A stretch of DNA of 64,000 nt from Eubacteriales bacterium. GTDB taxonomy: Bacteria; Bacillota; Clostridia; Oscillospirales; CAG-272. Of this stretch, positions 11,221-38,954 are shown one piece after another (the stretch's first letter is position 1; each line of letters starts with the position of its first letter). The translations under genes and the position numbers were made by a program. Where the stretch lies: assembly GCA_045657205.1 (NCBI GenBank), contig JAZOSS010000057.1, positions 2,666 through 66,665 on the forward strand. Direction: 5' to 3'. The notes beneath the pieces were generated by a model. It was not told where the DNA came from. It saw nothing but the letters and a program-made list of their open reading frames with translations, and ran no database searches.

Positions 11221-11271
11221 AAAAGATATTACAAGACATTATTTCACAAATATTTGAACTTGGAGAAAGAA

Positions 11272-12081
11272 ATGTACAGTATCAGAGAATTTATAGACCA
11301 CGCCGTATCACTTGAAACGACCATAAAACTTTGTGACGAATTATTTTCGGAAATGAAAAACAGCTTCAGCAGGATCCCCGAAGAACGCGAGCCGAGGCTT
11401 TCGGATTTTTCGAAAAAGACTTATTTTTACCGCACTGAAAGCTATAAGTTTTCGATAGTCGGCATAATCGCCGCCGTTATAATATCGACGGTGCTGTATT
11501 TCACAAGTGAAATGTACGATTTTGATCCTCAGCTTCCATGCCTTTTGGTGTTACTGCTCGGCGCTTCCCTCGGACTTATTGTTATGGCTTTCCGCAGAAA
11601 CAAAGAAAAACTGGTGGAAAAAAAAGCAATGAGTATGTACAAAAACGCACTTGACGATTATTACGCAAAACACAAGCTTGACACCTTTACAGCTTCAATG
11701 AGAAGCGCGAACATACTTTCCGACTGTGAAAACAAGCTGCTTCAGCTCAAAAATGAAACTTTTGCACTGCTCGGCAAGTTTTACGAAAAAGAAGCTGTGC
11801 CTATGAGAGGACGAAATTTCAGGATAATGTGCGCTGCGCTCGTGCGTTCTTCAAAAAATCCCGAATGCGTAACGATAAAAGAAATCTTGCATCTGATCGA
11901 CGATGACGATTACAAGCTTTCAAAATATGATTCGCTTTGCGAGAATGTAAAAAAACTTGCGCAACAAACGTGTTCCAATATGAATTCTGACGACCGTTAC
12001 GAGGAAATGGCAGAAACCATAGACGAAATAATCAAAAATTGTTCAGAACAAAATAATAAAATAAAAATATTTTTAAATTAA
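11272..12081 (+). CDS. Hypothetical membrane protein (two predicted TM helices, helical C-terminal half)
   Basis: ORF with a GGAGAAAG RBS 3 nt upstream of ATG 11272. Hydrophobic segments are FSIVGIIAAVIISTVLYF and LPCLLVLLLGASLGLIVMAF. I recognise no family. Confidence 0.6.
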   Translation: MYSIREFIDHAVSLETTIKLCDELFSEMKNSFSRIPEEREPRLSDFSKKTYFYRTESYKFSIVGIIAAVIISTVLYFTSEMYDFDPQLPCLLVLLLGASLGLIVMAFRRNKEKLVEKKAMSMYKNALDDYYAKHKLDTFTASMRSANILSDCENKLLQLKNETFALLGKFYEKEAVPMRGRNFRIMCAALVRSSKNPECVTIKEILHLIDDDDYKLSKYDSLCENVKKLAQQTCSNMNSDDRYEEMAETIDEIIKNCSEQNNKIKIFLN

Positions 12082-12099
12082 GAAAGGTAGTATTATTCT

Positions 12100-13329
12100 A
12101 TGAAAAGACTCATCTTCAAAGCAACATCGCTTCTGATCGTTGCAACACTCATTTTATGTGCGCTTCCTCTTTCTGCATTTGCAGCAGAAGAAGATTGTCC
12201 CATCATCTTTCTTCCCGGTGTAATGGGAAGCCGTCTTTACAACTCAGACAAGACGTTTAACGATTTCACACGCGTTTGGGAACCTTCCGTCTTCTTTATC
12301 ACAAGCTTCGCCGATCTCATCGAAAACGAAACACTTTATGTAGCTCCCCCTGTAAACGCAAACGAACCCGGTGTTAAGAGAGAATACGGTGCTTTGGACA
12401 CTTACAAAAACACTATCGACGCGCTTTGCGAAGCTTTCCCCGAAAGAGAGATATACTTCTTCTCATACGATTTCAGACAGAGCAATAAAGATTCTGCCGA
12501 AAAACTCAATGCTTTCATTACGGAATCCGGCTTTGACAAGGTTGATTTTGTAGCTCACAGCATGGGCGGTCTCGTAGTTGCAAACTACGTTGATATGTTC
12601 GGTTTTGACTGTGTCAACAAAATGATCACCTGCGGAACACCTTATATGGGCTCTGCTCAGATGCTCAACGTTGCTTTCGGCGACGATCTGCTTGCGACAA
12701 AATATTCAACAGGTATCGAGGGAATATTACTTCAGATAGCTGACCGCATCGTTTCCGGTCCTTTGGGCGTTGACAAAGCACTTCGCACATCATTCCGCGC
12801 TTGTGCTGAGCTTCTTCCCTACCAGGCAAGCGTCAAAGAAGTGCCGATGATGAAATACATAGGCAAATCGACCGACTTTATAAAACCGACGTTCCTCTAT
12901 CTGCCCACAAGCATCAACACGTACAAAGCTCTTTGCACAGATCTTTTCGGTGAAGAAATGTACGCAGATGCTTCCAAGATACAGAACAATCTTTACAAAA
13001 ACGTATACGCAGATATCCTCGGATACGACAACGCTTTCTTCGTTATCGGTGCAAACCAGACGACTATAAAAACAGTATTCTACAGCGGAGAGGGCGACAC
13101 GCTTAACGCTGATGTACTCAGACACACCTCCGGTGACGACACCGTAACGTTTGAGTCTGCAACGATGCTCGGAGCAATGCTCGACGTTGATTCAGCACGT
13201 TACTGCGTACAGTCTACAACTCACACAGGCACGTCAGGTGCCGAAAACACGGATGCTTCCGCGCTCTGCCTTGAATATATCATCGACATTCTTGCAGACG
13301 GCGTATCCGACGTTGCTTCCGCGGCATAA
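12100..13329 (+). CDS. Secreted alpha/beta-hydrolase (lipase/esterase, LCAT/PGAP1-like)
   Basis: 409 aa with a signal peptide (LLIVATLILCALPLSAFAAEE) and the nucleophile elbow AHSMGG. The GVMGS..LY N-terminal region is typical of LCAT-like lipases. It starts 19 nt after the previous gene. Confidence 0.7.
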   Translation: MKRLIFKATSLLIVATLILCALPLSAFAAEEDCPIIFLPGVMGSRLYNSDKTFNDFTRVWEPSVFFITSFADLIENETLYVAPPVNANEPGVKREYGALDTYKNTIDALCEAFPEREIYFFSYDFRQSNKDSAEKLNAFITESGFDKVDFVAHSMGGLVVANYVDMFGFDCVNKMITCGTPYMGSAQMLNVAFGDDLLATKYSTGIEGILLQIADRIVSGPLGVDKALRTSFRACAELLPYQASVKEVPMMKYIGKSTDFIKPTFLYLPTSINTYKALCTDLFGEEMYADASKIQNNLYKNVYADILGYDNAFFVIGANQTTIKTVFYSGEGDTLNADVLRHTSGDDTVTFESATMLGAMLDVDSARYCVQSTTHTGTSGAENTDASALCLEYIIDILADGVSDVASAA

Positions 13330-18598: not shown

Positions 18599-18966
18599 TT
18601 AAATATGACACTTTCGGCTTGAAAGTGTCATATTGGATTACATACTTTAAAATTATACCTATCTCAAAGATAAATGTAATAAGTGATATTGTGAGACAAG
18701 TCTCACAGTTTTATTTTGCCTTACGGCAAAGTGATATTAAAACCTTTGGTTTTAGTTTTATTATATTCGCTCCAAAACTGCCGAAGGCAATATCACTTGG
18801 ACGAAGTCCAAATATAACAGCGAAGCAATATAACTCGCCGATATGCGAATATAACTGAGGCGCACTTCCTTACGAAGTGCGGCTCTTTCGGAGATCTTTT
18901 TGTTTTTTTGTTTCATTTTTTCTTTTTCGGTGAAAGATATAGTATAAAACGAAAGGAGAAAACATA

Positions 18967-19881
18967 ATGAACATTCGCACAGATATGGCGCACGAGCTGC
19001 GCGAGGAATACATGAAGGAATATTCACAAACCCACGAAGGCGAGCCTGACGGAATAGAATGTGACGTTTACGAATCACACGGCATAAAAACCACAAAGAT
19101 CCGTGTGTTTAATCAAAACGGCTCGGATATTCTCGGAAAACCCATGGGAAATTACTATTCTATGGATGTCGGCAAGCTGTGGATGGCTGATTTTGATAAA
19201 TTCAAGCACGCCGCAAACGAGCTTGTAAAAATAATATCATCACTTTGTGACGTACACTCCCCCGTACTTGTGGCAGGCCTTGGAAACAGATATATAACCT
19301 CCGATGCGATAGGCCCGCTTGCCGTGAACAATCTCGTCGTATCCCACCACGTAAAGCAGTACGAAAGAAAGATATACGATTCGGCAGGACTTGGGGACGT
19401 ATCGGCTATAATCCCCGGCGTTCTTGCCCAGACTGGAATAGAGGCGGCAGAACAGATAAAGGGGGCAGTTGAGATGCTGAAGCCGTCAAGCGTGATCCTC
19501 ATAGACGCTCTTGCCTGCAGAAGTCTTTCATCCCTCACAACGACCGTTCAGATAACTGACACGGGAATATCTCCGGGAAGCGGTGTCGGAAACGACAGAG
19601 GCGAGCTTTCCGAAAAGACCTTCGGTGTAAAGACTGTGTGCATCGGAATACCGACCGTAATTGACGCAAGAACGCTCGTACGGGATGCACTTGAAGCCTG
19701 CACCGTTATGAATGATGAGAAAAAGGACTCGGTCATAAAATGCGCTTATCCCGATAAAGGCAGTTACGTCTGTCCGAAGGATACCGACGTTGCGGTAGAT
19801 GAAATGGCACGCCTTGCAGGATACGCCGTAAACAAGGCGTTTCACAGAACGCTTTCATATGAAGAAATGATGTATATGTAG
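18967..19881 (+). CDS. gpr: Germination protease GPR (spore endopeptidase)
   Basis: 304 aa with the N-terminus MNIRTDMAHE. GPR-like core segments are present (VLVAGLGNRYITSDAIGP, ITDTGISPGSGVGN). AAAGGAGAA RBS. The gpr-spoIIP order is conserved. Confidence 0.88.
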   Translation: MNIRTDMAHELREEYMKEYSQTHEGEPDGIECDVYESHGIKTTKIRVFNQNGSDILGKPMGNYYSMDVGKLWMADFDKFKHAANELVKIISSLCDVHSPVLVAGLGNRYITSDAIGPLAVNNLVVSHHVKQYERKIYDSAGLGDVSAIIPGVLAQTGIEAAEQIKGAVEMLKPSSVILIDALACRSLSSLTTTVQITDTGISPGSGVGNDRGELSEKTFGVKTVCIGIPTVIDARTLVRDALEACTVMNDEKKDSVIKCAYPDKGSYVCPKDTDVAVDEMARLAGYAVNKAFHRTLSYEEMMYM

Positions 19882-19937
19882 TCATAAAAATTCCGTATTT
19901 TTCATATAATTAACCGATAATAAAAAGGAGAAAGTAT

Positions 19938-21131
19938 ATGAAAAACACGGAATTTGATTTTGGAAATCTGAAAGAAAACACGGAAGAAAACAGGCAAAAA
20001 GGTGCAAGAAGGCAAGCCGTATACAAAGCTTTCAAAACATACGGGATATATCCCGTAACGCTGTTTTGTCTTTTGTTCGGGCTTATCTTTACACTTGAAG
20101 ACGGAATGAGTATGGTTTTGGGAAATATCTCTGTAACGACGTCGCAAAGTGTGCAAACGTATCCCTTAACAGAAGATGACACGGTTCAGGAAACACTCGG
20201 CGAAAATATCGACGTATTTGAATCTCCCTACGTTATAGGACTTGACGATTCCGAGCCGCTTGCCCTGACGGAATATTATTATCTGAACCGTGACGTTTTA
20301 CCCGACAATATATACGGATTTAATTACAATCTCATACCCGAAGGACATCTCGGAATAATTCCGATATCCCTTGCAAAAGATCACGACGGAGAAAAGCTTT
20401 ATATAAAAAACAGTTCTTCGTACGATATAGACACGGACGATTATACAGACTTTACCCTCCCCGAATACAAAGAAACAGACGAATATACCGTTTTGATAGT
20501 TCATACCCACGGCACGGAAGCGTACACTCCCGACGGGGTACTTTCGGACGATCCCGACGATCCATATTCCACACGGTCAACGGACAACACGGAAAACGTC
20601 GTCTCCGTAGGTGCGATTATGGCTGAAATATTTGAAAAAAACGGTATAAGGACTCTGCACTGTGATATTGCGCTTGACACGACCGTGGATGATTATAAAA
20701 ATGCGTATTCCGCAAGCAAAAAAGTAATAAAGGATGCCCTGAAAGAGCACCCCTCGATAAAATACATTTTTGACGTCCACCGCGACGGACTTATGCTTTC
20801 AAGCGGAGAAAAGGCTAAGGTCATATGCGAAGTTGACGGAAAGCTTGCCGCACAGGTAATGTGCGTTGTCGGCACGGACAGTCTCGGTGCCGACCACAAA
20901 AATTGGGGAGAAAATCTTTCATTCGCCCTGCTTTTGCAAAGAAAGCTTGAAGAAAAATACACGGATCTGTGCCGTCCTTCAAATATCAAAAAAAGCACGT
21001 ACAATCAGCAGTACACACCGTACAGCTTACTGCTTGAAATGGGCACCGACGGCAACACTTTGGAAGAAGCACAGTATACAGCCGAAATAGTGGCAAAAGA
21101 GCTGTGCCTGCTTATAAAGGGAGATCAATAG
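19938..21131 (+). CDS. spoIIP: Stage II sporulation protein P
   Basis: 397 aa with an N-terminal TM segment. The amidase-like core VLIVHTHGTEAY and IFDVHRDG is typical of SpoIIP. It lies directly downstream of gpr. Confidence 0.85.
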   Translation: MKNTEFDFGNLKENTEENRQKGARRQAVYKAFKTYGIYPVTLFCLLFGLIFTLEDGMSMVLGNISVTTSQSVQTYPLTEDDTVQETLGENIDVFESPYVIGLDDSEPLALTEYYYLNRDVLPDNIYGFNYNLIPEGHLGIIPISLAKDHDGEKLYIKNSSSYDIDTDDYTDFTLPEYKETDEYTVLIVHTHGTEAYTPDGVLSDDPDDPYSTRSTDNTENVVSVGAIMAEIFEKNGIRTLHCDIALDTTVDDYKNAYSASKKVIKDALKEHPSIKYIFDVHRDGLMLSSGEKAKVICEVDGKLAAQVMCVVGTDSLGADHKNWGENLSFALLLQRKLEEKYTDLCRPSNIKKSTYNQQYTPYSLLLEMGTDGNTLEEAQYTAEIVAKELCLLIKGDQ

Positions 21132-21646
21132 AGTCCTTCGCCCATTAAGAACGAATATATAAATTTATAAAGATGCTCCGGGTTTTCGGTAAAGTTTTTT
21201 TCCATTCGCTTCGCCTGAAAATCCGTTTCGGCATTTACTGTCACGGAGATGACACGGTTGCCTCTTCTGAATATCTGAAGCTCAAGGTCAACTGTGTCGT
21301 CTTCTCTTGCTTTAAGTGCTGTTTTGATTTTCGTTTTACTTTTGTCAAAAGCCAAAAACTGCATGGCGTGGCGTATTCCGTTTTCACGGACGTAGCCCGA
21401 TATATCACCCTTCAGCGTTCTTGCAATAAATTCACCCGACGGGGTTATCTCATACATATCCCCTTCGGTATTCTTCACAAAGCCCGCTTTTTTAAGTTCT
21501 TCAAATTGGTCTATAAAATCGTAGTTGCTTACAAAATCGTCTTGTAAAACGATATCGTTTATCTGGGAATACTTAAGCGGAAGATCCACGTAATTCATAA
21601 GCGTGAGTATGTAAAGCTTTACGTCAGCCGGTTCTTTAAGTTTCAA
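21125..21646 (-). CDS. Hypothetical protein, DUF4364-like (family recalled from memory)
   Basis: I placed the start at TTG 21646 (MKLKEPADVKLYIL), 8 nt after GAGAGG. The track extension to 21763 is hydrophobic junk running into the divergent promoter. Its 3' end overlaps the spoIIP stop by 7 nt. Confidence 0.6.
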   Translation of the reverse strand: MKLKEPADVKLYILTLMNYVDLPLKYSQINDIVLQDDFVSNYDFIDQFEELKKAGFVKNTEGDMYEITPSGEFIARTLKGDISGYVRENGIRHAMQFLAFDKSKTKIKTALKAREDDTVDLELQIFRRGNRVISVTVNAETDFQAKRMEKNFTENPEHLYKFIYSFLMGEGLY

Positions 21647-21756
21647 TTTGTCTACCTCTCGGAACAATAAATAATGTACGGGAATAATTCTACCACAAAT
21701 TTGGGCAAAAAAACAATATTTTGCTGTAAAAATAGTAAATTTTTTTTGAATATCTA

Positions 21757-21784
21757 TTGACATTGTTAAAAATTATGTTATAAT
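21757..21784 (+). promoter_or_regulatory. Sigma-A-type promoter with extended -10, for the sigma-factor gene
   Basis: TTGACA (21757-21762), a 16-nt spacer, then TGtTATAAT (21776-21784). Confidence 0.65.
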
Positions 21785-21827
21785 GTACATAAAGATATTG
21801 ATAAGATGTGAAAGGGGCGGGAGTAAC

Positions 21828-22385
21828 ATGTGCCAAGAATCTGATGTTACACTTGCCAAAAACGGCGATAAAGATGCGTTTGTAAGGCTTCTTGAAGCCT
21901 ACACTCCGCTTATTTCTTCACTTTCGAGTCAGTTTTACTCCGATGACACGTCGGCAAACGTCGGTATGGACGACCTTATGCAGGAGGCAAGTATTGCTTT
22001 TTATAATGCAGTGCTTTCGTATACAGAAGGAAAAAATACCACGTTCGGTCTTTATGCAAAGATCTGCATAAGAAACCGTCTTGTGTCGTATATGCGCCGT
22101 ATGTGCGTCGGCATTGACGTCAAGACCGAGGATATTGAAAAGCTTATCGACTCATCCGTTGCACCGCAAACGGACGGCCCGCTTGAGCTTCTTATATCAG
22201 AGGAAGAAGTAAAAACGATGCAGGAAAATATACGCTCCGTTCTTACAGATTATGAATACAGCGTATTTTCCCTTTTCGTCCAGGGAACGTCGGTATCCGA
22301 AATAGCATCGGAACTTAATGCAGGAGAAAAGTCTGTGCACAACGCTATTTCAAGAGTCAGAAGCAAGCTTAAAAAAATGTATTAA
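21828..22385 (+). CDS. Sigma-70 family RNA polymerase sigma factor (small, SigH/ECF-like)
   Basis: Region 2-like DDLMQEASIAFYNAVLSY...FGLYAKICIRNRL and region 4 HTH LTDYEYSVFSLFVQGTSVSEIASELNAGEKSVHNAISRVRSKL. The start is set at ATG 21828 after AAAGGGG. Confidence 0.8.
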   Translation: MCQESDVTLAKNGDKDAFVRLLEAYTPLISSLSSQFYSDDTSANVGMDDLMQEASIAFYNAVLSYTEGKNTTFGLYAKICIRNRLVSYMRRMCVGIDVKTEDIEKLIDSSVAPQTDGPLELLISEEEVKTMQENIRSVLTDYEYSVFSLFVQGTSVSEIASELNAGEKSVHNAISRVRSKLKKMY

Positions 22386-23879: not shown

Positions 23880-24353
23880 TTAGTTTTCTTTACCCGTTAC
23901 AACAGTAAAATAATTTTCCAAAAGCTCCGACGGCATATTGTAAAGCACGGTACCTTCATTCGTATCGTCACGTATGCACAGATAAAGAGTATCTCCTTCA
24001 AGATAATATTTATCCTTAAAATATCTTAGTCCCGCCTTTGCCTTCACGGGATCAAGCGGTGTTCCCTCAAATTCGGGCGGCAGATATTCCCAAAGCGTAT
24101 GCGCTGCTGACGGTATCCAGGCGGAATTTGACGTATGCGCCTGCAAGCACTTATACACATCGCCCTCATACACCGCCGTACTGCCGAGAGAATACTGTTT
24201 ATTTTCTTCCCAGACAGGAAGAGATGAGCTTATTCTGTTAAGCTCCTTTGCTGTCAAAACCTCGGAGAGCATCTGATTTTCCGATATACAGAGTTTTTCA
24301 AGCACCTTCATTTTTTCGTTATACGCATACACCGCACGTTTAAGTCTTTGCAT
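23880..24353 (-). CDS. CBM5/12-type carbohydrate-binding domain protein (phage tail accessory-like)
   Basis: 157 aa. The segment YSLGSTAVYEGDVYKCLQAHTSNSAWIPSAAHTLWEY closely follows the chitin-binding CBM5/12 pattern (..Y.G..YKCLQ.HTS...W.PS....LW). Its start is coupled to the upstream stop through TAATG. Confidence 0.75.
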   Translation of the reverse strand: MQRLKRAVYAYNEKMKVLEKLCISENQMLSEVLTAKELNRISSSLPVWEENKQYSLGSTAVYEGDVYKCLQAHTSNSAWIPSAAHTLWEYLPPEFEGTPLDPVKAKAGLRYFKDKYYLEGDTLYLCIRDDTNEGTVLYNMPSELLENYFTVVTGKEN

Positions 24354-25726
24354 TATCCCTCACCTCCTTCCGCCAGGAGTGTGAGCTGTGTTTTAAGCTC
24401 TTCTATATCGCTTTTCAGCGAATCTATGACGAGAATCGTGTCGGCGTTGTAAGATATCTCAAACGGCACACGGCGAACGTTTACATTTACCTTTGAAGCA
24501 GTAAAAGTTATTTCAGCCGGTGATACTTTATCCACGAACGGTTCTGCATATTCATAATAAACGGTTATATCCGTACCGTTTTCAATTTCACGGTCAATAA
24601 GCGAATAAAACAGTTCTTTTGCCTCATCGCCGCCAAGCTTTTCATCTCCGTATGTAAAATTCATATTTCCGTCATCGTAATAACAGCCATTTTCACATTC
24701 ATCAAGTGTCCCGCACCTTACAAAATGTGTACAAAGCGCATTTATTCCCTTTTTGCCTCGCGGATACATTTCAGACGTATCCGTAAAAATATTTGTATTT
24801 TTATCCGAAGTATTTACGACGCTCACATTGTAAGGAATACTTCCGCAGTCACCGCTTACAGCATCAACAAGAAACAGTTCACCGTAGAGCTTTTTGAATT
24901 TTGCAACGCCTACTCTGTGAATGACTTCGCCTTTTACGACGTCGTAAGTGTCCTTCACTTCATCGTCAAGAGAATATAAAATTATGTCCTTTCCGGGCGA
25001 TATATTATTTGAACCGACAAGTATTCTCGAAGGTCTTTGACTTGAAAAATACGAAGGGGTATCGGGGGATTTTCCATTCGTTGGAACCGTCTCCTGTGTT
25101 TTTCCCAATAACATAAAATGAAAAAGTTTAGAACCGACGAGTACGTTATCGAGAGTTGTCGATGCCGCCACACCGTCGCTTTTGCAGAACACTCTGTAAA
25201 CATTTGCGTAATTTATTGAATGTTCGTAAAGCTCTTTTGCAAGCTCTTGTCTTTCAAGTTCAGCCAAATTGCGTTTTTCTTCAGCAATTACTCTTTCTTT
25301 TTCCTTTTCGGTTACCGAATTTACTTCTTCAAGAAGCTCCGACTGTTCATTTTCCAACTCATCGTAACGGGAGATAAGCTGTAAATATACGTCCTCTACA
25401 GGTTCTGCAGGTGTGCCGTTCGGTGTAAGTATACTGCTTCGGCACGGTATTTTTGCAGGGGCTGTCGTACGCACTGCCGGTGCGTACACACCGAGATATA
25501 CAGCAGGCGGCGATATTATCTCGCGCGGAATAAGCACCGTATTGCTGTTCGGCAAAATAACGTCAACGTAGTTTTTGCCGTTTGTAAATCTTACCGTTTT
25601 CGTTACACCTTCCCACTCCCCGTCAAAAGTGAAATGGACGGAATAATCCGAATTGTCACATATGGCAGGTGGCAGGTCTTTTATTGACGTAAGTGTTTTG
25701 TTTTCGATTTTAAAATCAAATTGCAT
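24353..25726 (-). CDS. Phage tail-fibre / receptor-binding-like protein
   Basis: About 457 aa from ATG 25726 (MQFDFKIENK), after a GGAAAGGA RBS. The N-terminal beta-rich domain, central coiled coil (EQSELLEEVNSVTEKEKERVIAEEKRNLAELERQELAKEL) and C-terminal globular domain fit siphophage tail-fibre architecture. The track extension to 25819 covers the promoter. Confidence 0.65.
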   Translation of the reverse strand: MQFDFKIENKTLTSIKDLPPAICDNSDYSVHFTFDGEWEGVTKTVRFTNGKNYVDVILPNSNTVLIPREIISPPAVYLGVYAPAVRTTAPAKIPCRSSILTPNGTPAEPVEDVYLQLISRYDELENEQSELLEEVNSVTEKEKERVIAEEKRNLAELERQELAKELYEHSINYANVYRVFCKSDGVAASTTLDNVLVGSKLFHFMLLGKTQETVPTNGKSPDTPSYFSSQRPSRILVGSNNISPGKDIILYSLDDEVKDTYDVVKGEVIHRVGVAKFKKLYGELFLVDAVSGDCGSIPYNVSVVNTSDKNTNIFTDTSEMYPRGKKGINALCTHFVRCGTLDECENGCYYDDGNMNFTYGDEKLGGDEAKELFYSLIDREIENGTDITVYYEYAEPFVDKVSPAEITFTASKVNVNVRRVPFEISYNADTILVIDSLKSDIEELKTQLTLLAEGGEG

Positions 25727-25790
25727 TTGTTCCTTTCCATCGGCAAGTGCCGATTTTTTCGGGCGGAAAGCGAACATATGTTCTTTTTTG

Positions 25791-25819
25791 ATTATACCAC
25801 AAAACTTATTTTTTGTCAA
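25791..25819 (-). promoter_or_regulatory. Sigma-A-type promoter with extended -10 for the tail-fibre-like operon
   Basis: On the minus strand: TTGACA (25819-25814), a 17-nt spacer, then TGgTATAAT (-10 at 25796-25791). Confidence 0.65.
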
Positions 25820-27988: not shown

Positions 27989-28017
27989 TTGACAATATAA
28001 TCATAGTATGATATAAT
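27989..28017 (+). promoter_or_regulatory. Sigma-A-type promoter with extended -10 for dinJ-yafQ
   Basis: TTGACA (27989-27994), a 17-nt spacer, then TGaTATAAT (-10 at 28012-28017). Confidence 0.7.
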
Positions 28018-28039: not shown

Positions 28040-28321
28040 ATGCCTAAAGTATCAGCAAATATAAGCATTGATGCCGAAACAAAAGTAAAGGCGCAGGCGA
28101 TGCTTGCCGAATTCGGAATGGATCTGTCTACTGCTGTAAATATTTTTCTTCGTCAGATGATCTACGAGGGCAAGATTCCGTTTTCAATCACCAGAGAAGT
28201 TCCTAACAAGATAACAGTTGATGCAATAAATGAAGCGAAAGAAATATTGAATTTCCCCGAAAAGTATAAAAAGTATGACAGCGTAGACAGTATGATGGAG
28301 GACATTCTGGGTGAAGTATGA
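28040..28321 (+). CDS. dinJ: Type II antitoxin, RelB/DinJ family
   Basis: 93 aa from ATG 28040, after an AAAGGAG RBS. ISIDAETKVKAQAMLAEFGMDLSTAVNIFLRQM is a DinJ-type ribbon-helix-helix. It overlaps the toxin start by 11 nt. Confidence 0.85.
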   Translation: MPKVSANISIDAETKVKAQAMLAEFGMDLSTAVNIFLRQMIYEGKIPFSITREVPNKITVDAINEAKEILNFPEKYKKYDSVDSMMEDILGEV

Positions 28322-28586
28322 GATCGTTCCTTCAAATCAATTCAAAAAGGACTTGAAGACAGCACATAAGCGCGGATATGACCTTGATAAAATCAAAAAA
28401 GTGATCGCCGCACTTGCAAGCGGTGAAACCCTTGATCCCAAATACCGCGATCACTCTTTGGCGGGAAATTACAGCGGTTGCCGGGAATGTCATATTCAGC
28501 CGGATTGGCTGCTCGTATATCAAGTAAATGAAGACCGTCTGATCTTACTTTTGATCAGAACCGGTACGCACAGCGACTTATTTTGA
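28311..28586 (+). CDS. yafQ: Type II toxin, YafQ/RelE-family mRNA interferase
   Basis: 91 aa with a GTG start. FKKDLKTAHKRGYDLDKIKKVI...DHSLAGNYSGCRECHIQPDWLLVY...LLIRTGTHSDLF is a canonical YafQ pattern. Confidence 0.88.
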   Translation: MKYEIVPSNQFKKDLKTAHKRGYDLDKIKKVIAALASGETLDPKYRDHSLAGNYSGCRECHIQPDWLLVYQVNEDRLILLLIRTGTHSDLF

Positions 28587-28783
28587 ATTTAATTCGACTT
28601 ACAAAATTTTGCAAACTTCGACGTTTCGATGTTCATCATATAAAAAATATGAAATTTAATAATACAAGGTATGAAGGTTTTGGCTTTCATATCTTTTTAT
28701 TTTGCTTTCTTTCGGTTTTATGTTTAAAATCGGAATTTTTAAGAAAAAATAATAGCAGAACATAATCAAAAGGAGAGAGCAAA

Positions 28784-29158
28784 GTGATCATAAAAAGAGG
28801 AGATATCTTCTACGCGGATCTCTCCCCCGTTATCGGAAGCGAGCAGGGGGGACTCCGTCCAGTTTTAATAGTACAAAACGACGTCGGAAATAAATTTTCG
28901 CCAACCGTTATTGCCGCCGCAATAACGAGCAGAGTATCAAAAACAAAACTGCCGACGCACATCGGAATATACGCTGACAGCTACGGTCTTGCAAAAGATT
29001 CCGTCGTGTTGCTTGAGCAGATACGCACCCTTGACAAGCAACGCCTTAAAGAAAAGATGGGGCATCTTGACGAGGACGTGATGGAGCAGGTGAACGAAGC
29101 AATATCCGTAAGCTTCGGACTTTCGGAAAACAACCTGAACAACACTGCAATTTCTTAA
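28784..29158 (+). CDS. mazF: MazF/EndoA-type endoribonuclease toxin
   Basis: 124 aa with a GTG start after [55 protein letters not shown]...LPTH is near-collinear with B. subtilis EndoA (NdoA). Confidence 0.9.
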
Positions 29159-29169
29159 GGTGCAAAAAG

Positions 29170-30573
29170 ATGATAAACTCAACATCCATTGATGAAAAAA
29201 TACGTTTTTTTGACGATGCTTTGAGGATTTCCGAAAGCTTTGATACCGTACGCAGAGATATAATATCGTGCAACGTGCGATGCAGTTTTTATTTCGTTGA
29301 CGGTCTTACCAAAGACGAGGTAATGCTGCGTATAATGGATCTGTTTATGAAGCTGAAAGAGTTTGATACCGCCTCCGTATCATCACTTAAAGCCTTTTGC
29401 GACACGTATATACCGTACGTTGAAGTGGAAAGTGCGAAAAACGAACAGCACATGATCACTGGCGTTCTTTCGGGGATGACGGCTATGGTTGCAGACGGTA
29501 TTCCGGGTGCCGTTCTTATCGACTGCCGAACGTACCCCGTACGCGGAATAGAAGAACCGGAAAACGACAAAGTGTTAAGAGGTGCGCGTGTCGGCTTTGT
29601 CGAAACACTTGTTTTTAACGCCGCACTCATTCGCCGCCACATAAGAGATCCGAAGCTTACGATGAAGATAAAAACCGTCGGCACGTCGTCAAAAACGGAT
29701 ATCGTGCTTTGTTATCTTGACGGAAAAGCTGACAAAAAACTGCTTGAAAGTATAGAAAAAAAGCTTGATGAAATAAACGTGCCCGCACTTTCCTTATCAA
29801 GTGAGTCACTTGCGGAATGTCTTATAAAAACACGCTGGTACAACCCTTTCCCGAAAATACGGTACACAGAGCGTCCCGATGCGGCATCGGCAAGCATTAT
29901 GGAAGGAAGCATTATCGTTTTATGCGACAATTCCCCGTCAGCCATGATCCTGCCGACGTGCATATTTGATTTTTTGCAGGAAACGGACGATTACTATTTT
30001 CCTCCCCTCACAGGCACATATCTTCGCTTTGTGCGGTGTTCGGTTTTCTTTTTGACTGTATTTTTATCCCCTCTTTGGTATCTTTTAATAACGCACGACG
30101 AGTATATTCCGCGTTGGCTTGACTTTATCCGTATTGAGGAGGTATCGGGGCTTCCCGTAATAGTACAGCTCTTTTTGCTTGAATTTGCCGTTGACGGCTT
30201 GAAGCTTGCCGCACTTAACACGCCGTCTGTCCTTGCGGGGAGCTTTTCTATAATAGGCGGTCTTATACTCGGTGACTTTGCCGTTAAGGTCGGCTGGTTC
30301 GTACCCGAAACGATACTTTATACAGCCTTCGTCAGCATTGCAAACTTTGCACAGCCGAGCTACGAGCTTGGATACGCGTTCAAATTTATGCGCCTCATCC
30401 TGCTTTTGCTGACAGCTTTGTTTGAAATTTGGGGATTTATTGCAGGAGTCGTTCTGACAGTCGGTCTTATATGCACGAACAAAACGGTACAAGGACAAAG
30501 AAACTATCTTTATCCGCTCATACCGTTTAATAAAAAAGCACTCACACGGCTTTTGATAAGAAAAAAATTATAA
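29170..30573 (+). CDS. Spore germination protein, GerA-A subunit / SpoVAF family
   Basis: 467 aa with a soluble N-terminal domain and 4-5 C-terminal TM helices, as in GerAA/SpoVAF proteins. It starts 12 nt after the mazF stop. No GerB or GerC partner is adjacent. Confidence 0.8.
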   Translation: MINSTSIDEKIRFFDDALRISESFDTVRRDIISCNVRCSFYFVDGLTKDEVMLRIMDLFMKLKEFDTASVSSLKAFCDTYIPYVEVESAKNEQHMITGVLSGMTAMVADGIPGAVLIDCRTYPVRGIEEPENDKVLRGARVGFVETLVFNAALIRRHIRDPKLTMKIKTVGTSSKTDIVLCYLDGKADKKLLESIEKKLDEINVPALSLSSESLAECLIKTRWYNPFPKIRYTERPDAASASIMEGSIIVLCDNSPSAMILPTCIFDFLQETDDYYFPPLTGTYLRFVRCSVFFLTVFLSPLWYLLITHDEYIPRWLDFIRIEEVSGLPVIVQLFLLEFAVDGLKLAALNTPSVLAGSFSIIGGLILGDFAVKVGWFVPETILYTAFVSIANFAQPSYELGYAFKFMRLILLLLTALFEIWGFIAGVVLTVGLICTNKTVQGQRNYLYPLIPFNKKALTRLLIRKKL

Positions 30574-30617: not shown

Positions 30618-30657
30618 AAAAAACTTTTCCGAGCTATCGTTCGGAAAAGTTTTTTAT
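30618..30657. terminator. Bidirectional rho-independent terminator
   Basis: AAAACTTTTCCGA / TCGGAAAAGTTTT stem flanked by an A-run and a T-run, between convergent genes. Confidence 0.8.
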
Positions 30658-34732: not shown

Positions 34733-34929
34733 AAATATCCCTCTTTCTTTTGTTAGTTTTCTAATTATTCTACCGCAATTATTTTTTCGTTTCAATATAT
34801 TATAATGGTAATATTTGTGAACAAAGAAAAGTTTTATTAAATATTTTATGTATATAAAAAAGTCACGTCTTGACTTTTTCCGCCGTTTGATATATCATAT
34901 AGCCGTGGTTTTAAAAAGGAGTATCAAAA

Positions 34930-36009
34930 ATGGCTAAAAAAACAAAAAAGACCCCCTGGGGACTTATAAAAGCATATCTTAACAGAGTTTTTATTGATGG
35001 GCTTTCGGGAATGGCTCTCGGACTTTTTGCAACGCTTATCGTCGGTACGATATTAAAACAGCTCGGAGAATATATTCCGGGTGATATCGGCATCATACTT
35101 GAAAAAACGGGTGCTGTTGCACAGATAGCAACGGGTGCCGGTATCGGCTGCGGAGTTGCAACGAAGCTTTCGGCAAAACCGCTCGTCGTTTTTTCATCTG
35201 CCGTGTGCGGACTCGTCGGTGCATTTGCCGCAAAGCTTCCGTATATGAACGGTGTGTCGCTTTCGGGCCCGGGCGATCCTCTCAACGCATTTATCGCCGC
35301 ATACGTTTGTGTTGAAATAGGCGCACTTATAGCGGGAAAAACGAAGATAGATATAATCCTCACCCCCGTCGTATCCGTCTTTTGCGGAAGCTTCATCGGT
35401 TTTGTAACGGGTGATGAAATAGCGGAATTTAACGCCTTTTTGGGAGGACTTGTCGAATACGGAGTCGAATCGCGTCCGATCCTTGCAGGTATCATCGTTT
35501 CCGTACTTATGGGAATGTTTCTGACTCTTCCGATAAGCTCGGCGGCGATCGGTGTCATTCTCGGTCTTTCGGGGATCGCCGCAGGTGCGGCAACGGTCGG
35601 CTGCTGTGCCAATATGATAGGTTTTGCAGTTATAAGCTACCGTGAAAATAAAATGGGCGGACTTCTTGCCCAGGGACTCGGCACAAGTATGCTCCAGATG
35701 CCGAATATATTGAAAAGGCCCCTGATATGGCTGCCGCCTATAATCACAAGCGCCATACTCGGACCTTTGTCAACTGTCGTATTCAAAATGACGAACTCCC
35801 CCGCAGGCTCGGGAATGGGTACGGCAGGTCTTGTAGGACCGTTGCTTTCGTTTGCGGATATGACGTCCCACGGAGGATCCACAGTATCCGTACTTATAAA
35901 AATAGCCTTGATGTACTTTATCCTCCCCGCTGTTTTAAGCCTTGCCATATCCGAAGGAATGAGAAAAGCAGGCTTTATAAAGCAGGGAGATATGAAGCTC
36001 GATTTATAA
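34930..36009 (+). CDS. PTS EIIC-like integral membrane protein (PfoR family)
   Basis: 359 aa, polytopic and glycine-rich. N-terminus KAYLNRVFIDGLSGMALGLFATLIVGTILKQLG. AAAGGAG RBS. Confidence 0.7.
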   Translation: MAKKTKKTPWGLIKAYLNRVFIDGLSGMALGLFATLIVGTILKQLGEYIPGDIGIILEKTGAVAQIATGAGIGCGVATKLSAKPLVVFSSAVCGLVGAFAAKLPYMNGVSLSGPGDPLNAFIAAYVCVEIGALIAGKTKIDIILTPVVSVFCGSFIGFVTGDEIAEFNAFLGGLVEYGVESRPILAGIIVSVLMGMFLTLPISSAAIGVILGLSGIAAGAATVGCCANMIGFAVISYRENKMGGLLAQGLGTSMLQMPNILKRPLIWLPPIITSAILGPLSTVVFKMTNSPAGSGMGTAGLVGPLLSFADMTSHGGSTVSVLIKIALMYFILPAVLSLAISEGMRKAGFIKQGDMKLDL

Positions 36010-37512: not shown

Positions 37513-38424
37513 TCAGTGCGTTAATTTCAAATGAATACGTGCCGTATCGGCTATCACGTTAAGATCGTACGCTTTGTCTTGCCAACCGCCGAATGTAAGG
37601 GTAACTTCCTTAGGCTTGCCCTTTTCAAGCGTTACGGTCTTATTTGACGTTTTGGCAAACTCACCGTTTTCGTTTTGCGGCACTGCCTCTATTTTAATCG
37701 TCGTATCCTCTTGTGAGGTAACGGTGACAGTTATCGAATTTACACCGTTTTCAGGTGTGGCGTCGCTGCTTGTTTCAACACTTTTTATATCGAGGGAAAG
37801 CATCCCTTCGTCTTCAAACACACGTTTAAGCTCGACGTTCGTTCCCGAATACGTACCGTATAGGGTGTTTCTGGGATAGTATGTCCAAAGCTCGTTTAAA
37901 AGCTGTACAAGCTCCTCGCTGTAGGAAAGCACGTCACCCTCCGTGTAATGCCCTTCGACTGTACATATTTCCTTTTTTTCGGGTGATATACGGTATATTT
38001 TGCCTTCCGTTTCTATCCAGAACGTACCTTCGGGTGCTTTGCATATCTCAGACGGCATAAAGCTGAACGCCTCGTCTGTGATCTTTTCGCTTTTTTCGTT
38101 TGTCGGTGTAAGTGAAAAAAGCATATCTTCAAATATTTTACCGTACTGTCCCTTTATTTCCTTCTTGCTGACCGGCAAAGATTTTTTCGTACAGCACAGA
38201 AGAAGAAACGATGCTTCTTCCGTTTCCTCATCTTCCTTTGATGACGTATCCGTATCCTTATTTTCAGCAGTGGTATCTGTGGGTCTGCTTACGGCCTCAT
38301 CCTCTTTGTAGTATATATTTTCTTCCGTTTCGTTCGTGTTTTGTTCAGTTTTGACGTTTGTGCAGGAGGAAAGTGACACGGCAATTGCCAGAAGAAACAA
38401 AAAAATTCTTACGTATTTTTTCAT
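37513..38424 (-). CDS. Hypothetical lipoprotein
   Basis: 303 aa with a signal peptide and lipobox (LAIAVSLSSC), followed by an acidic Thr/Glu-rich linker. Confidence 0.7.
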   Translation of the reverse strand: MKKYVRIFLFLLAIAVSLSSCTNVKTEQNTNETEENIYYKEDEAVSRPTDTTAENKDTDTSSKEDEETEEASFLLLCCTKKSLPVSKKEIKGQYGKIFEDMLFSLTPTNEKSEKITDEAFSFMPSEICKAPEGTFWIETEGKIYRISPEKKEICTVEGHYTEGDVLSYSEELVQLLNELWTYYPRNTLYGTYSGTNVELKRVFEDEGMLSLDIKSVETSSDATPENGVNSITVTVTSQEDTTIKIEAVPQNENGEFAKTSNKTVTLEKGKPKEVTLTFGGWQDKAYDLNVIADTARIHLKLTH

Positions 38425-38533
38425 AAAAGCTCCATTTATATTTTGTATTATATAATATACATCATTGATTTCATTTTGTCAAGTCACGGTACGCACCGTG
38501 TAAAATCGGTAATTTTTGTTAAATAAATGTTAA

Positions 38534-38941
<408 letters not shown>

Positions 38942-38954
38942 CACATCCACATAA

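Follow-up and report, generated by a model that had tools for sequence, protein, structure and literature searches.

A mazF toxin gene without a linked antitoxin and its conserved, predicted forespore-type promoter in a clade of uncultured Clostridia

How can a bacterium carry a gene for a toxic endoribonuclease when no antitoxin gene lies beside it? This question is raised by the mazF gene in a 64,000-nucleotide stretch of a Eubacteriales genome (assembly GCA_045657205.1, contig JAZOSS010000057.1, positions 2,666 to 66,665 of the forward strand), the whole of which is referred to here as the window. EndoA-type MazF is among the most conserved proteins of the Bacillota, and its physiological role is disputed. 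An initial annotation of the window held that in known loci the gene is always preceded by a MazE/EndoAI antitoxin gene, which is too strong a statement: a recent survey (Frenkel et al. 2026, bioRxiv, August 2026) found MazF in 80% of ~3300 Bacillota genomes; in 25% of the MazF-encoding Bacillota it saw no putative antitoxin gene upstream, and it posed the control of MazF in the antitoxin-less species as an open question. Solo toxins have long been known, and regulation in trans has been proposed for them (Makarova et al. 2009). Antitoxin-less EndoA-type MazF is already known as a widespread, recently noticed class, and the window gene is one member of it. What we add is a conserved and specific promoter signature, which provides a testable hypothesis for how an antitoxin-less MazF is tolerated. 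With moderate confidence, we propose that transcription of mazF takes place in the early forespore and that such confinement replaces a linked antitoxin.

The mazF gene and the search for a linked antitoxin

The gene and its ribosome-binding site are as follows.
28784 to 29158, forward strand: mazF, encoding an EndoA-type PemK/MazF endoribonuclease of 124 aa, with a GTG start and without a cognate antitoxin gene (from Pfam, solved structures, and dN/dS).
28769 to 28777, forward strand: ribosome-binding site of mazF, AAAGGAGAG (read from the sequence).

The Pfam family PF02452 (PemK_toxin) spans the mazF product end to end (E = 3e-37), solved EndoA/MoxT structures align with it collinearly and free of gaps (E ~1e-48), and it is 65% identical to Bacillus anthracis MoxT over 114 residues, also with no gaps. 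With more than 60% identity and full collinearity, the protein falls in the EndoA subgroup, so the initial annotation was right about its collinearity with EndoA, as it was about the strong ribosome-binding site, of which AAAGGAG is invariant in a four-sequence alignment. When a single genome of each species was scanned, 533 mazF relatives came up, of which the best 80 (72 to 98% identity) were analyzed; all are from metagenome-assembled genomes of uncultured gut Clostridia, labeled Eubacteriales, Clostridia, or Oscillospiraceae. Loci are identified below by L numbers where they must be told apart. The catalytic residues R25 and T48 are kept in the window MazF and in 80/80 relatives. Between the window and L013, mazF has a nonsynonymous divergence (dN) of 0.06 and a synonymous divergence (dS) of 1.8, and dN/dS is about 0.03 to 0.09; the clade-wide medians of the proportions of nonsynonymous and synonymous differences are 0.17 (pN) and 0.83 (pS), which means that synonymous sites are saturated. 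In L172, the one sister genome that allows both comparisons, MazF is 87% identical to its window counterpart and the spore protease Gpr is 72% identical. Based on these values, the inactivating substitutions that had been considered possible can be set aside, and the nuclease, judged by its sequence, is intact and evolves under purifying selection.

No antitoxin gene accompanies this nuclease gene. In the last 80 nt before mazF there are stop codons in all three forward frames, and the sole open reading frame (ORF) in the 197 nt upstream, at 28583 to 28765, matches no family and has no conserved counterpart in sister species. This bears out the earlier observation that no antitoxin ORF lies upstream. 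We searched for a hidden mazE by collecting all ORFs of at least 30 to 35 aa within ~600 nt upstream of mazF at the 80 loci and clustering them all-against-all. No conserved ORF family adjoins mazF on either side in these 80 species-level loci; the upstream clusters are alternative frames of mazF or unrelated neighbors, namely, DUF378, sigK, an ORF of ~240 aa that has no NCBIfam match (Pfam was not run), and an S1-domain protein. The gap to the preceding gene is often too short for mazE (e.g., 82 to 100 nt in L009 to L011), and the rare ORFs that do abut mazF are basic, of low complexity, and mutually unrelated. Neither the window nor 1.1 Mb of related loci gave a match to an EndoAI query in a tblastn search. 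Besides dinJ, no ribbon-helix-helix (RHH)-, AbrB-, or MazE-type gene is present among the 52 window ORFs scanned against Pfam, which comprise most ORFs of at least 120 aa before 55 kb, with small ORFs and genes beyond 55 kb left out.

The same arrangement is present in five independent assemblies of this species (L001 to L004 and L092), so it is no assembly artifact. A conserved antitoxin ORF in the corresponding gap of relatives, which would have pointed to a sequencing error here, occurs in none of the 80 loci. We conclude that an antitoxin ORF is absent next to mazF across the clade and that the window locus lacks the adjacent, cotranscribed antitoxin of a type II mazEF module. Apparent N-terminal fusions in longer MazF homologues were considered as MazE-MazF fusions and rejected; they are mis-called starts or C-terminal tails.

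Other features of the protein vary within the clade. The solo MazF proteins (L013 to L091) have a variable, disordered tail beyond the conserved ..SFGL, encoded in the window at 29100 to 29158. The residues A, G, P, T, E, and S abound in this tail, which has a median length of 22 aa (range, 2 to 112 aa), and its extreme C terminus is recurrent, with G as the last residue in 37/80 proteins and I as the penultimate residue in 25/80 (endings such as ..FIG, ..VIG, and ..VTA; ..AIS in the window). A role as a degron or as a cis-inhibitory segment is conceivable. A subclade (L016, L018, L019, L024, L028, L034, L038, L052, and L087) has an N-terminal extension of 13 to 16 aa (MSSTIQSRDPQTA...) ahead of the canonical MazF start, with its own ribosome-binding site, and its promoter motif is ~90 nt further upstream. 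The best-scoring database match, P0001 (200 aa; ENA), is a MazF in which ~85 residues are duplicated internally in tandem, probably an assembly artifact. The cleavage specificity of the window MazF is probably UACAU(A), as in its EndoA relatives; U^ACAU(A) is the cleavage site of EndoA-type MazF (Frenkel et al. 2026 preprint). The corresponding hexamer TACATA is not depleted in the window, with 38 occurrences versus a median of 30 for composition-matched hexamers, and it is absent from mazF-gerA and gpr-spoIIP, stretches that are too short for this to be significant.

The conserved promoter motif and its predicted sigma factor

When the upstream regions of mazF are lined up, a single conserved flanking element stands out, the bipartite motif G(T/A)TTA-N15/16-GGnAAnAATA. 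In the window it is as follows.
28722 to 28751, forward strand: mazF promoter, predicted to be of the early-forespore (sigma-F/G) type, with GTTTA at 28722 to 28726, a 15-nt spacer, and AGAAAAAATA at 28742 to 28751 (from a position weight matrix and conservation).

This promoter is 32 nt before the GTG start codon, and the predicted transcription start site is near 28758. Across the clade, the -35 element is G(T/A)(T/A/C)TA (GTTTA, 34 loci; GATTA, 10; GACTA, 4; GAATA, 3; GTTTT, 3; GTATA, 2) and the spacer is 15 or 16 nt in 50 of the 56 loci with the motif, the remaining 6 having 14 nt. Within the -10 element, GGnAAnAATA, positions G1, G2, A4, A5, A7, and T9 are conserved at 95 to 100% and the 3' AATA at 80 to 100%. 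From the end of the motif to the start codon there are 30 to 146 nt (median, 50).

A strict regular expression, with a background rate of 0.006 per 260 nt, finds the motif in 56/82 loci, and a position weight matrix, trained on the mazF upstream regions themselves, finds it in ~68/81; overall, it is present in 53 to 70 of ~80 species, depending on the method. The matrix has just three further matches of at least 18 bits in 637 kb of flanking DNA (both strands), and its single match of that strength in the window is at 28719 to 28754 (28.4 bits; 0.2 expected from shuffles). A relaxed scan of 1.14 Mb with the core of the matrix, which is overfitted to mazF, recovered 58 mazF upstream regions versus 22 weak matches elsewhere. 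When the window is aligned with L013 and L172, conservation begins exactly at the -35 element, GTTTAAAA, with nothing conserved upstream of it, and it continues in the -10 element, a short block around the predicted start site, and the ribosome-binding site. Based on these results, we conclude that the motif is conserved and specific to mazF upstream regions. An inverted repeat at 28714 to 28734 (CGGTTTTA TGTT TAAAATCGG) overlaps the -35 element in this species only and is not found in L013 or L172.

The sigma-F consensus of Bacillus subtilis is GywTA-N15-GgnrAnAnTw. The window promoter, GTTTA-N15-AGAAAAAATA, follows the pattern G(y/n)(w)TA-N15-GGnrAnAnTw, and its distance from mazF is suitable. 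The mazF motif also resembles the mapped sigma-F and sigma-G promoters of Clostridioides difficile (Saujet et al. 2013, Table S6), including those of spoVT (...GGTAAAAATA), CD2841 (...GGCAACAATA), CD3220.1 (...GACAAAAATA), and the sigma-F-dependent genes CD0347 (CGATTAAA...GGTAAATACTA) and gapN (TGTTTA...). A conserved G upstream of the -10 element is the stated hallmark of sigma-F promoters. The window itself holds a second gene with which the motif can be compared.
18910 to 18939, forward strand: gpr promoter, GTTTC-N15-GTGAAAGATA, an internal positive control (read from the sequence).
18967 to 21131, forward strand: forespore germination-protease operon of gpr (18967 to 19881; PF03418, E = 2e-58) and spoIIP (19938 to 21131; PF07454, E = 7e-58).

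The gpr gene is a canonical early-forespore gene. In C. difficile it is on the list of mapped sigma-F promoters (Saujet et al. 2013). In six relatives (L172 to L177), the gpr orthologues are preceded by G[TC][AT]T.-N14-16-G[GT]nAAnAAT[AC], which is the same architecture as that of the mazF motif (e.g., GTTTC-N15-GGTTAGAATA in L172, GCATA-N14-GTCAAAAATC in L174, and GTATA-N15-AGGAAAAATA in L175). The motif is conserved across mazF orthologues and is common to gpr in the same genomes, as expected of members of one regulon. In contrast, orthologues of the lone gerA-like gene that follows mazF in the window have a different, sigma-G-type promoter, GAATA-N17/18-CATACTA. The sigma-F-type motif is found in 53/80 mazF upstream regions versus 3/53 gerA-like upstream regions (p = 3e-13) and the sigma-G-type motif in 2/80 versus 16/53 (p = 6e-6), counts and p-values that are optimistic because the loci are phylogenetically related and their independence is overstated.

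Genes around mazF in the window and in relatives

In several relatives, mazF is found near sporulation genes. In L172 the order is gpr, mazF, a 232-aa ORF, and gerA-like (L172, 2543 to 6013), and mazF is 96 nt after gpr, in the spot that spoIIP holds elsewhere, with its own motif kept (GCGTTTAAAAATCTCCTCTTGATGAAAAAATA). In L043, L055, L064, L071, and L091, sigK (NCBIfam SigK subfamily, 271 to 275 bits) is two genes upstream of mazF, and in L005 to L008, spoIIP is 1.3 kb downstream of it.

Some details of these neighborhoods are recorded here as observations. The 232-aa ORF of L172 has a signal peptide, a C-terminal membrane anchor, and no Pfam match on record; its stop and start codons overlap with those of its neighbors, and it is absent from the window. 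In the five species with sigK, the full order is sigK, a DUF378-like small membrane protein gene, mazF, and a gene for an S1-domain RNA-binding protein. The window (18967 to 22385) and L174 to L177 share a block of gpr, spoIIP, an ORF of ~85 aa (called just in L174 and L176), and an opposite-strand DUF4364 gene. This block is followed by a sigma-70-like gene (Sigma70_r2 plus a GerE-type helix-turn-helix) in the window, L174, L176, and L177 and by a gene for a zf_Tbcl protein in L175. The DUF4364 and sigma-like genes may be part of the sporulation program.

Downstream of mazF in the window are the following features.
29170 to 30573, forward strand: gene for a lone GerA-family A-subunit/SpoVAF-like membrane protein of 467 aa (PF03323, E = 4e-138, full length).
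30618 to 30655, forward strand: strong terminator-like hairpin that closes the mazF-gerA-like unit and is shared with a convergent ABC-transporter gene (17-bp stem plus T-run).

The close spacing of mazF and the gerA-like gene that had been described is confirmed, with a gap of 11 nt rather than 12 nt from the mazF stop to the gerA-like start, and no terminator lies between them. The lack of GerB and GerC partners is confirmed as well: the gene is flanked by mazF and by two convergent ABC-transporter genes, so that only the A-type gene of a GerA receptor operon, in which A, B, and C subunits occur together, is present, and no spoVA genes adjoin it. Because no sigma-G-type promoter of its own was read within the 3' end of mazF, the window gerA-like gene probably depends on the mazF promoter and is probably cotranscribed with mazF in this lineage. 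Conservation of the pairing in related Clostridia, which had been thought possible, is not borne out by two independent scans. Among the 80 mazF loci, a gerA-like gene adjoins mazF only in the conspecific L012 and in L013 (78/80 are without it), and in a reverse scan of 80 metagenomic gerA-like loci, mazF was present only in the conspecific L092 (79/79 nonconspecific loci are without it). The association is confined to three close lineages, which are this species, L013, and L172. Other gerA-like orthologues (49 to 60% identity) stand alone in varied housekeeping contexts. We conclude that the mazF-gerA pairing is a local rearrangement and not the basis of the system.

Upstream of mazF is a second toxin gene, which does have an antitoxin.
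27989 to 28017, forward strand: sigma-A-type promoter of dinJ-yafQ, TTGACA-17-TATAAT, TG-extended (12/12 in the promoter scan).
28040 to 28321, forward strand: dinJ, encoding a RelB/DinJ antitoxin of 93 aa from the ATG at 28040 (PF04221, E = 1e-13; TIGR02384, E = 3e-18).
28311 to 28586, forward strand: yafQ, encoding a RelE/YafQ toxin of 91 aa and overlapping dinJ by 11 nt (PF15738, E = 9e-37).
28666 to 28705, forward strand: terminator-like hairpin (28666 to 28695) plus T-run that ends the dinJ-yafQ transcript, with a 13-bp stem and the tail TTTATTTTGC (kept in L012).

As the initial annotation had it, this is a complete dinJ-yafQ pair, a RelB/DinJ gene overlapping a YafQ/RelE gene behind a consensus promoter, and the 197-nt spacer between yafQ and mazF contains a yafQ terminator-like hairpin. 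This hairpin dominates the fold of the spacer (28587 to 28783; z = -3.3 versus shuffled sequences). The pair, which does not belong to the mazF unit, is next to mazF only in this species (conspecific metagenome-assembled genome L001/L012), and other genes are upstream of mazF in L013 and L172. Because neither dinJ nor gerA is conserved next to mazF, these neighbors cannot explain the clade-wide solo toxin. DinJ was considered as a general surrogate antitoxin and ruled out, as dinJ-yafQ is missing at all other loci, including L013 and L172. Directly behind the yafQ stop codon, ~60 nt (window 28587 to 28650) differ strongly from the conspecific L012 between nearly identical flanks, possibly marking a junction of the dinJ-yafQ insertion.

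Otherwise, the window consists of ordinary housekeeping chromosome (rnc, topA, dprA, groEL, htpG, yidC, and rnpA), probably near the origin of replication. Sizeable ORFs at 11254 to 13329, 24353 to 25819, 34911 to 35612, and 37513 to 38952 have no Pfam match.

Explanations for an antitoxin-less mazF and comparison with known systems

The reading that we favor would run as follows. The clade would have inherited an EndoA-type MazF, lost the linked MazE, and brought the toxin gene under the control of an early-forespore promoter, so that control of mazF would be transcriptional rather than exerted by a cotranscribed antitoxin. The gene would be silent in growing cells and expressed only in the forespore after asymmetric division, a compartment in which growth arrest is the goal and an antidote may be unneeded. 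There, MazF would cut a narrow set of mRNAs and thereby reshape the transcriptome of the forespore. The gerA-like gene, which has come to lie behind mazF in this species and in two sister lineages, would form a small forespore operon with it. A more elaborate version, which we put forward tentatively, is that an ancestral mazEF became an antitoxin-free, forespore-confined developmental RNase, with sigma-F activity, which is off until septation, as the stand-in for the antitoxin, with MazF shutting down or reprogramming the transcriptome toward dormancy, and with the variable C-terminal tail, which often ends in -(V/F/A)-I-G, possibly acting as a degron or a cis-inhibitory pseudo-antitoxin that sets when the enzyme is active. 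Recruitment of the RNase to sporulation or germination had been suggested before. Its direction agrees with the conserved forespore-type promoter, but the proposed basis, coexpression with the gerA-like gene, does not hold for a pairing found in three lineages only.

Several points weigh against a forespore assignment, besides the relatedness of the loci and the training of the matrix on mazF upstream regions. From motif similarity, we infer sigma-F, possibly also sigma-G, as the regulator of mazF, and forespore-restricted expression and a physiological role along with it. Depending on the method, 10 to 27 of the ~80 loci have no clear motif, and the -10 element of the window, AGAAAAAATA, has an A in place of the first G. 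GTTTAA, the -35 element seen most often, is at the same time the classical one of sigma-B, the sigma-B -10 element likewise begins with GG, and some Clostridia encode SigB. The best sigma-A reading of the mazF promoter, TTAAAA-18-AATAAT (9/12), is weak but possible; we disfavor it because the invariant G residues would be left unexplained, and by its letters the motif is not sigma-A-like. Sigma-A-driven dinJ-yafQ transcripts could read through the AT-rich hairpin and give vegetative mazF expression. The view of this genome is limited to 64 kb, which leaves space for an antitoxin gene elsewhere.

Such a gene, a conventional MazE-, RHH-, or AbrB-type antitoxin or a recruited regulator, could neutralize MazF in trans, with or instead of forespore restriction. 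There is precedent in Myxococcus xanthus, in which MazF-mx is neutralized by MrpC, encoded 4.4 Mb away; regulation in trans is also the proposal made for solo toxins by Makarova et al. (2009), and Frenkel et al. (2026) leave the possibility open for antitoxin-less Bacillota MazF. However, dinJ is the one candidate among the 52 window ORFs scanned, and DinJ, confined to this species, is not a clade-wide partner; the EndoAI query recovered nothing similar in the window or in the 1.1 Mb of related loci; and neutralization in trans leaves unexplained why a promoter that is not of the sigma-A type is the sole conserved element next to mazF. We regard it as rather unlikely, although it deserves to be taken seriously. 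The promoter could instead be read by a sigma-B-like general-stress factor, which would make the solo MazF an RNase that stress induces in vegetative or stationary cells. The sigma-B -35 element GTTTAA is established for Bacillus, Listeria, and Staphylococcus. It equals the majority -35 element of the motif, (T)G(T/A)TTAA, and the motif -10 element begins with GG. In addition, C. difficile has SigB, some cellulolytic Clostridia are listed as having it, and the mazEF genes of Bacilli are directly upstream of the rsb-sigB operon (Frenkel et al. 2026). Against this, the -35 variants GTATA, GAATA, and GACTA are of the forespore type and not of the sigma-B type, position 4 of the -10 element is an invariant A where GGGTAT has T, and the conserved 3' AATA of the -10 element is diagnostic of sigma-F/G promoters. 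Moreover, these genomes have the same promoter architecture in front of gpr, a forespore gene that is not known to depend on sigma-B, and the gene contexts of mazF are sporulation genes. A sigma-B-like reader of the motif therefore seems improbable to us.

Two further explanations fare much worse. The initial annotation had raised a noncanonical antitoxin that is an RNA or a downstream product, which at this locus would be an RNA encoded in 28587 to 28783, an antisense RNA, or the GerA-like protein. The spacer does fold better than shuffled sequences (z = -3.3) and has a weak Rfam match to a C. difficile small RNA (E = 0.21), and mazF is tightly linked to the gerA-like gene (11-nt gap), but the fold signal is that of the yafQ terminator hairpin plus the species-private inverted repeat, the Rfam match (21 bits versus a gathering score of 128) is below threshold, and conservation with L013 and L172 begins only at the -35 element. 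Since synonymous sites in mazF are saturated (pS of 0.83), there is no clade-wide overlapping RNA, and the gerA-like gene is not next to mazF in 78/80 species, with the downstream gene differing in most of them. A local antitoxin of this kind is largely refuted by the comparative data and is very improbable. We find it harder still to believe that the locus is a decaying or misassembled mazEF remnant, with an inactive toxin or a mazE lost through a sequencing error. In the general toxin-antitoxin literature, solo toxin genes are often degenerate, but the same arrangement occurs in independent conspecific assemblies and in 80 other species, dN/dS is at most 0.1, the catalytic residues are invariant, and MazF is better conserved than Gpr in L172 (87% versus 72%).

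If transcription of the toxin is indeed confined to a terminally differentiating compartment, this would be one answer to the question of how MazF is controlled where no antitoxin is linked to it. The early-forespore program of abundant, mostly uncultured gut spore formers would gain an RNase, and endospore formers would offer a case, parallel to that of Myxococcus, in which a toxin-antitoxin module has been domesticated as a developmental regulator. It would also extend the sigma-E dependence of mazEF in C. difficile. The pattern GTTTA-N15/16-GGnAAnAATA in front of a solo mazF is a simple signature with which rewired toxins can be sought in metagenomes.

The closest known systems share the toxin and differ in its control. 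EndoAI/EndoA of B. subtilis (ndoAI-ndoA, MazEF-bs) and MoxXT of B. anthracis have the same collinear PemK/MazF fold, with ~65% identity, Arg25, and Thr48. In contrast to these loci, the window locus has no overlapping RHH antitoxin gene and no alr or rsb-sigB neighborhood, its mazF promoter is not sigma-A-like, and its MazF has a C-terminal tail beyond ..SFGL. The antitoxin-less MazF proteins of other Bacillota, e.g., Enterococci (Frenkel et al. 2026), are likewise conserved and EndoA-type with no upstream antitoxin. Enterococci, however, do not sporulate, and no promoter-level explanation has been proposed for them, whereas the window clade has a conserved forespore-type promoter. The architecture of that promoter is the same as in gpr and early-forespore genes of the same genomes, and gpr is adjacent to mazF in L172; gpr itself encodes a protease of small acid-soluble spore proteins (SASPs) that is unrelated to toxin-antitoxin systems, and membership of mazF in its regulon is predicted. 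Like SpoVAF (5AF), the 467-aa protein encoded downstream matches PF03323 over its full length and occurs without B and C subunits. Unlike spoVAF, its gene is outside any spoVA operon, and its orthologues stand alone behind sigma-G-type promoters. FigP, the partner of 5AF, is found mostly in Bacilli.

Three systems connect MazF with sporulation. In C. difficile, mazE-mazF (CD3462-CD3461) likewise encodes a clostridial EndoA-type MazF, its expression is linked to sporulation, and mazEF is down 10- to 20-fold in a sigE mutant. Unlike the window locus, it keeps mazE and an alr2 neighbor, its mapped promoter is of the sigma-A type, and its link to sporulation is through the mother cell (sigma-E), whereas the one that we propose is through the forespore. 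The MazF of B. subtilis is a narrow, nonlethal regulator with a six-base specificity that targets Spo0A/sporulation-related mRNAs. In M. xanthus, the solitary MazF-mx has no linked antitoxin and is wired into development and sporulation, with a strain-dependent phenotype. The window MazF is similar in having no linked antitoxin, and its developmental control is suggested by promoter class; M. xanthus, however, belongs to an unrelated phylum with an unrelated type of sporulation, and its transcription factor MrpC both activates mazF and binds the toxin, while no candidate for such a partner was identified for the window MazF. The forespore reading fits with the sigma-E dependence of mazEF in C. 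difficile, with the regulatory role of MazF in B. subtilis, and with the developmental wiring of MazF in Myxococcus.

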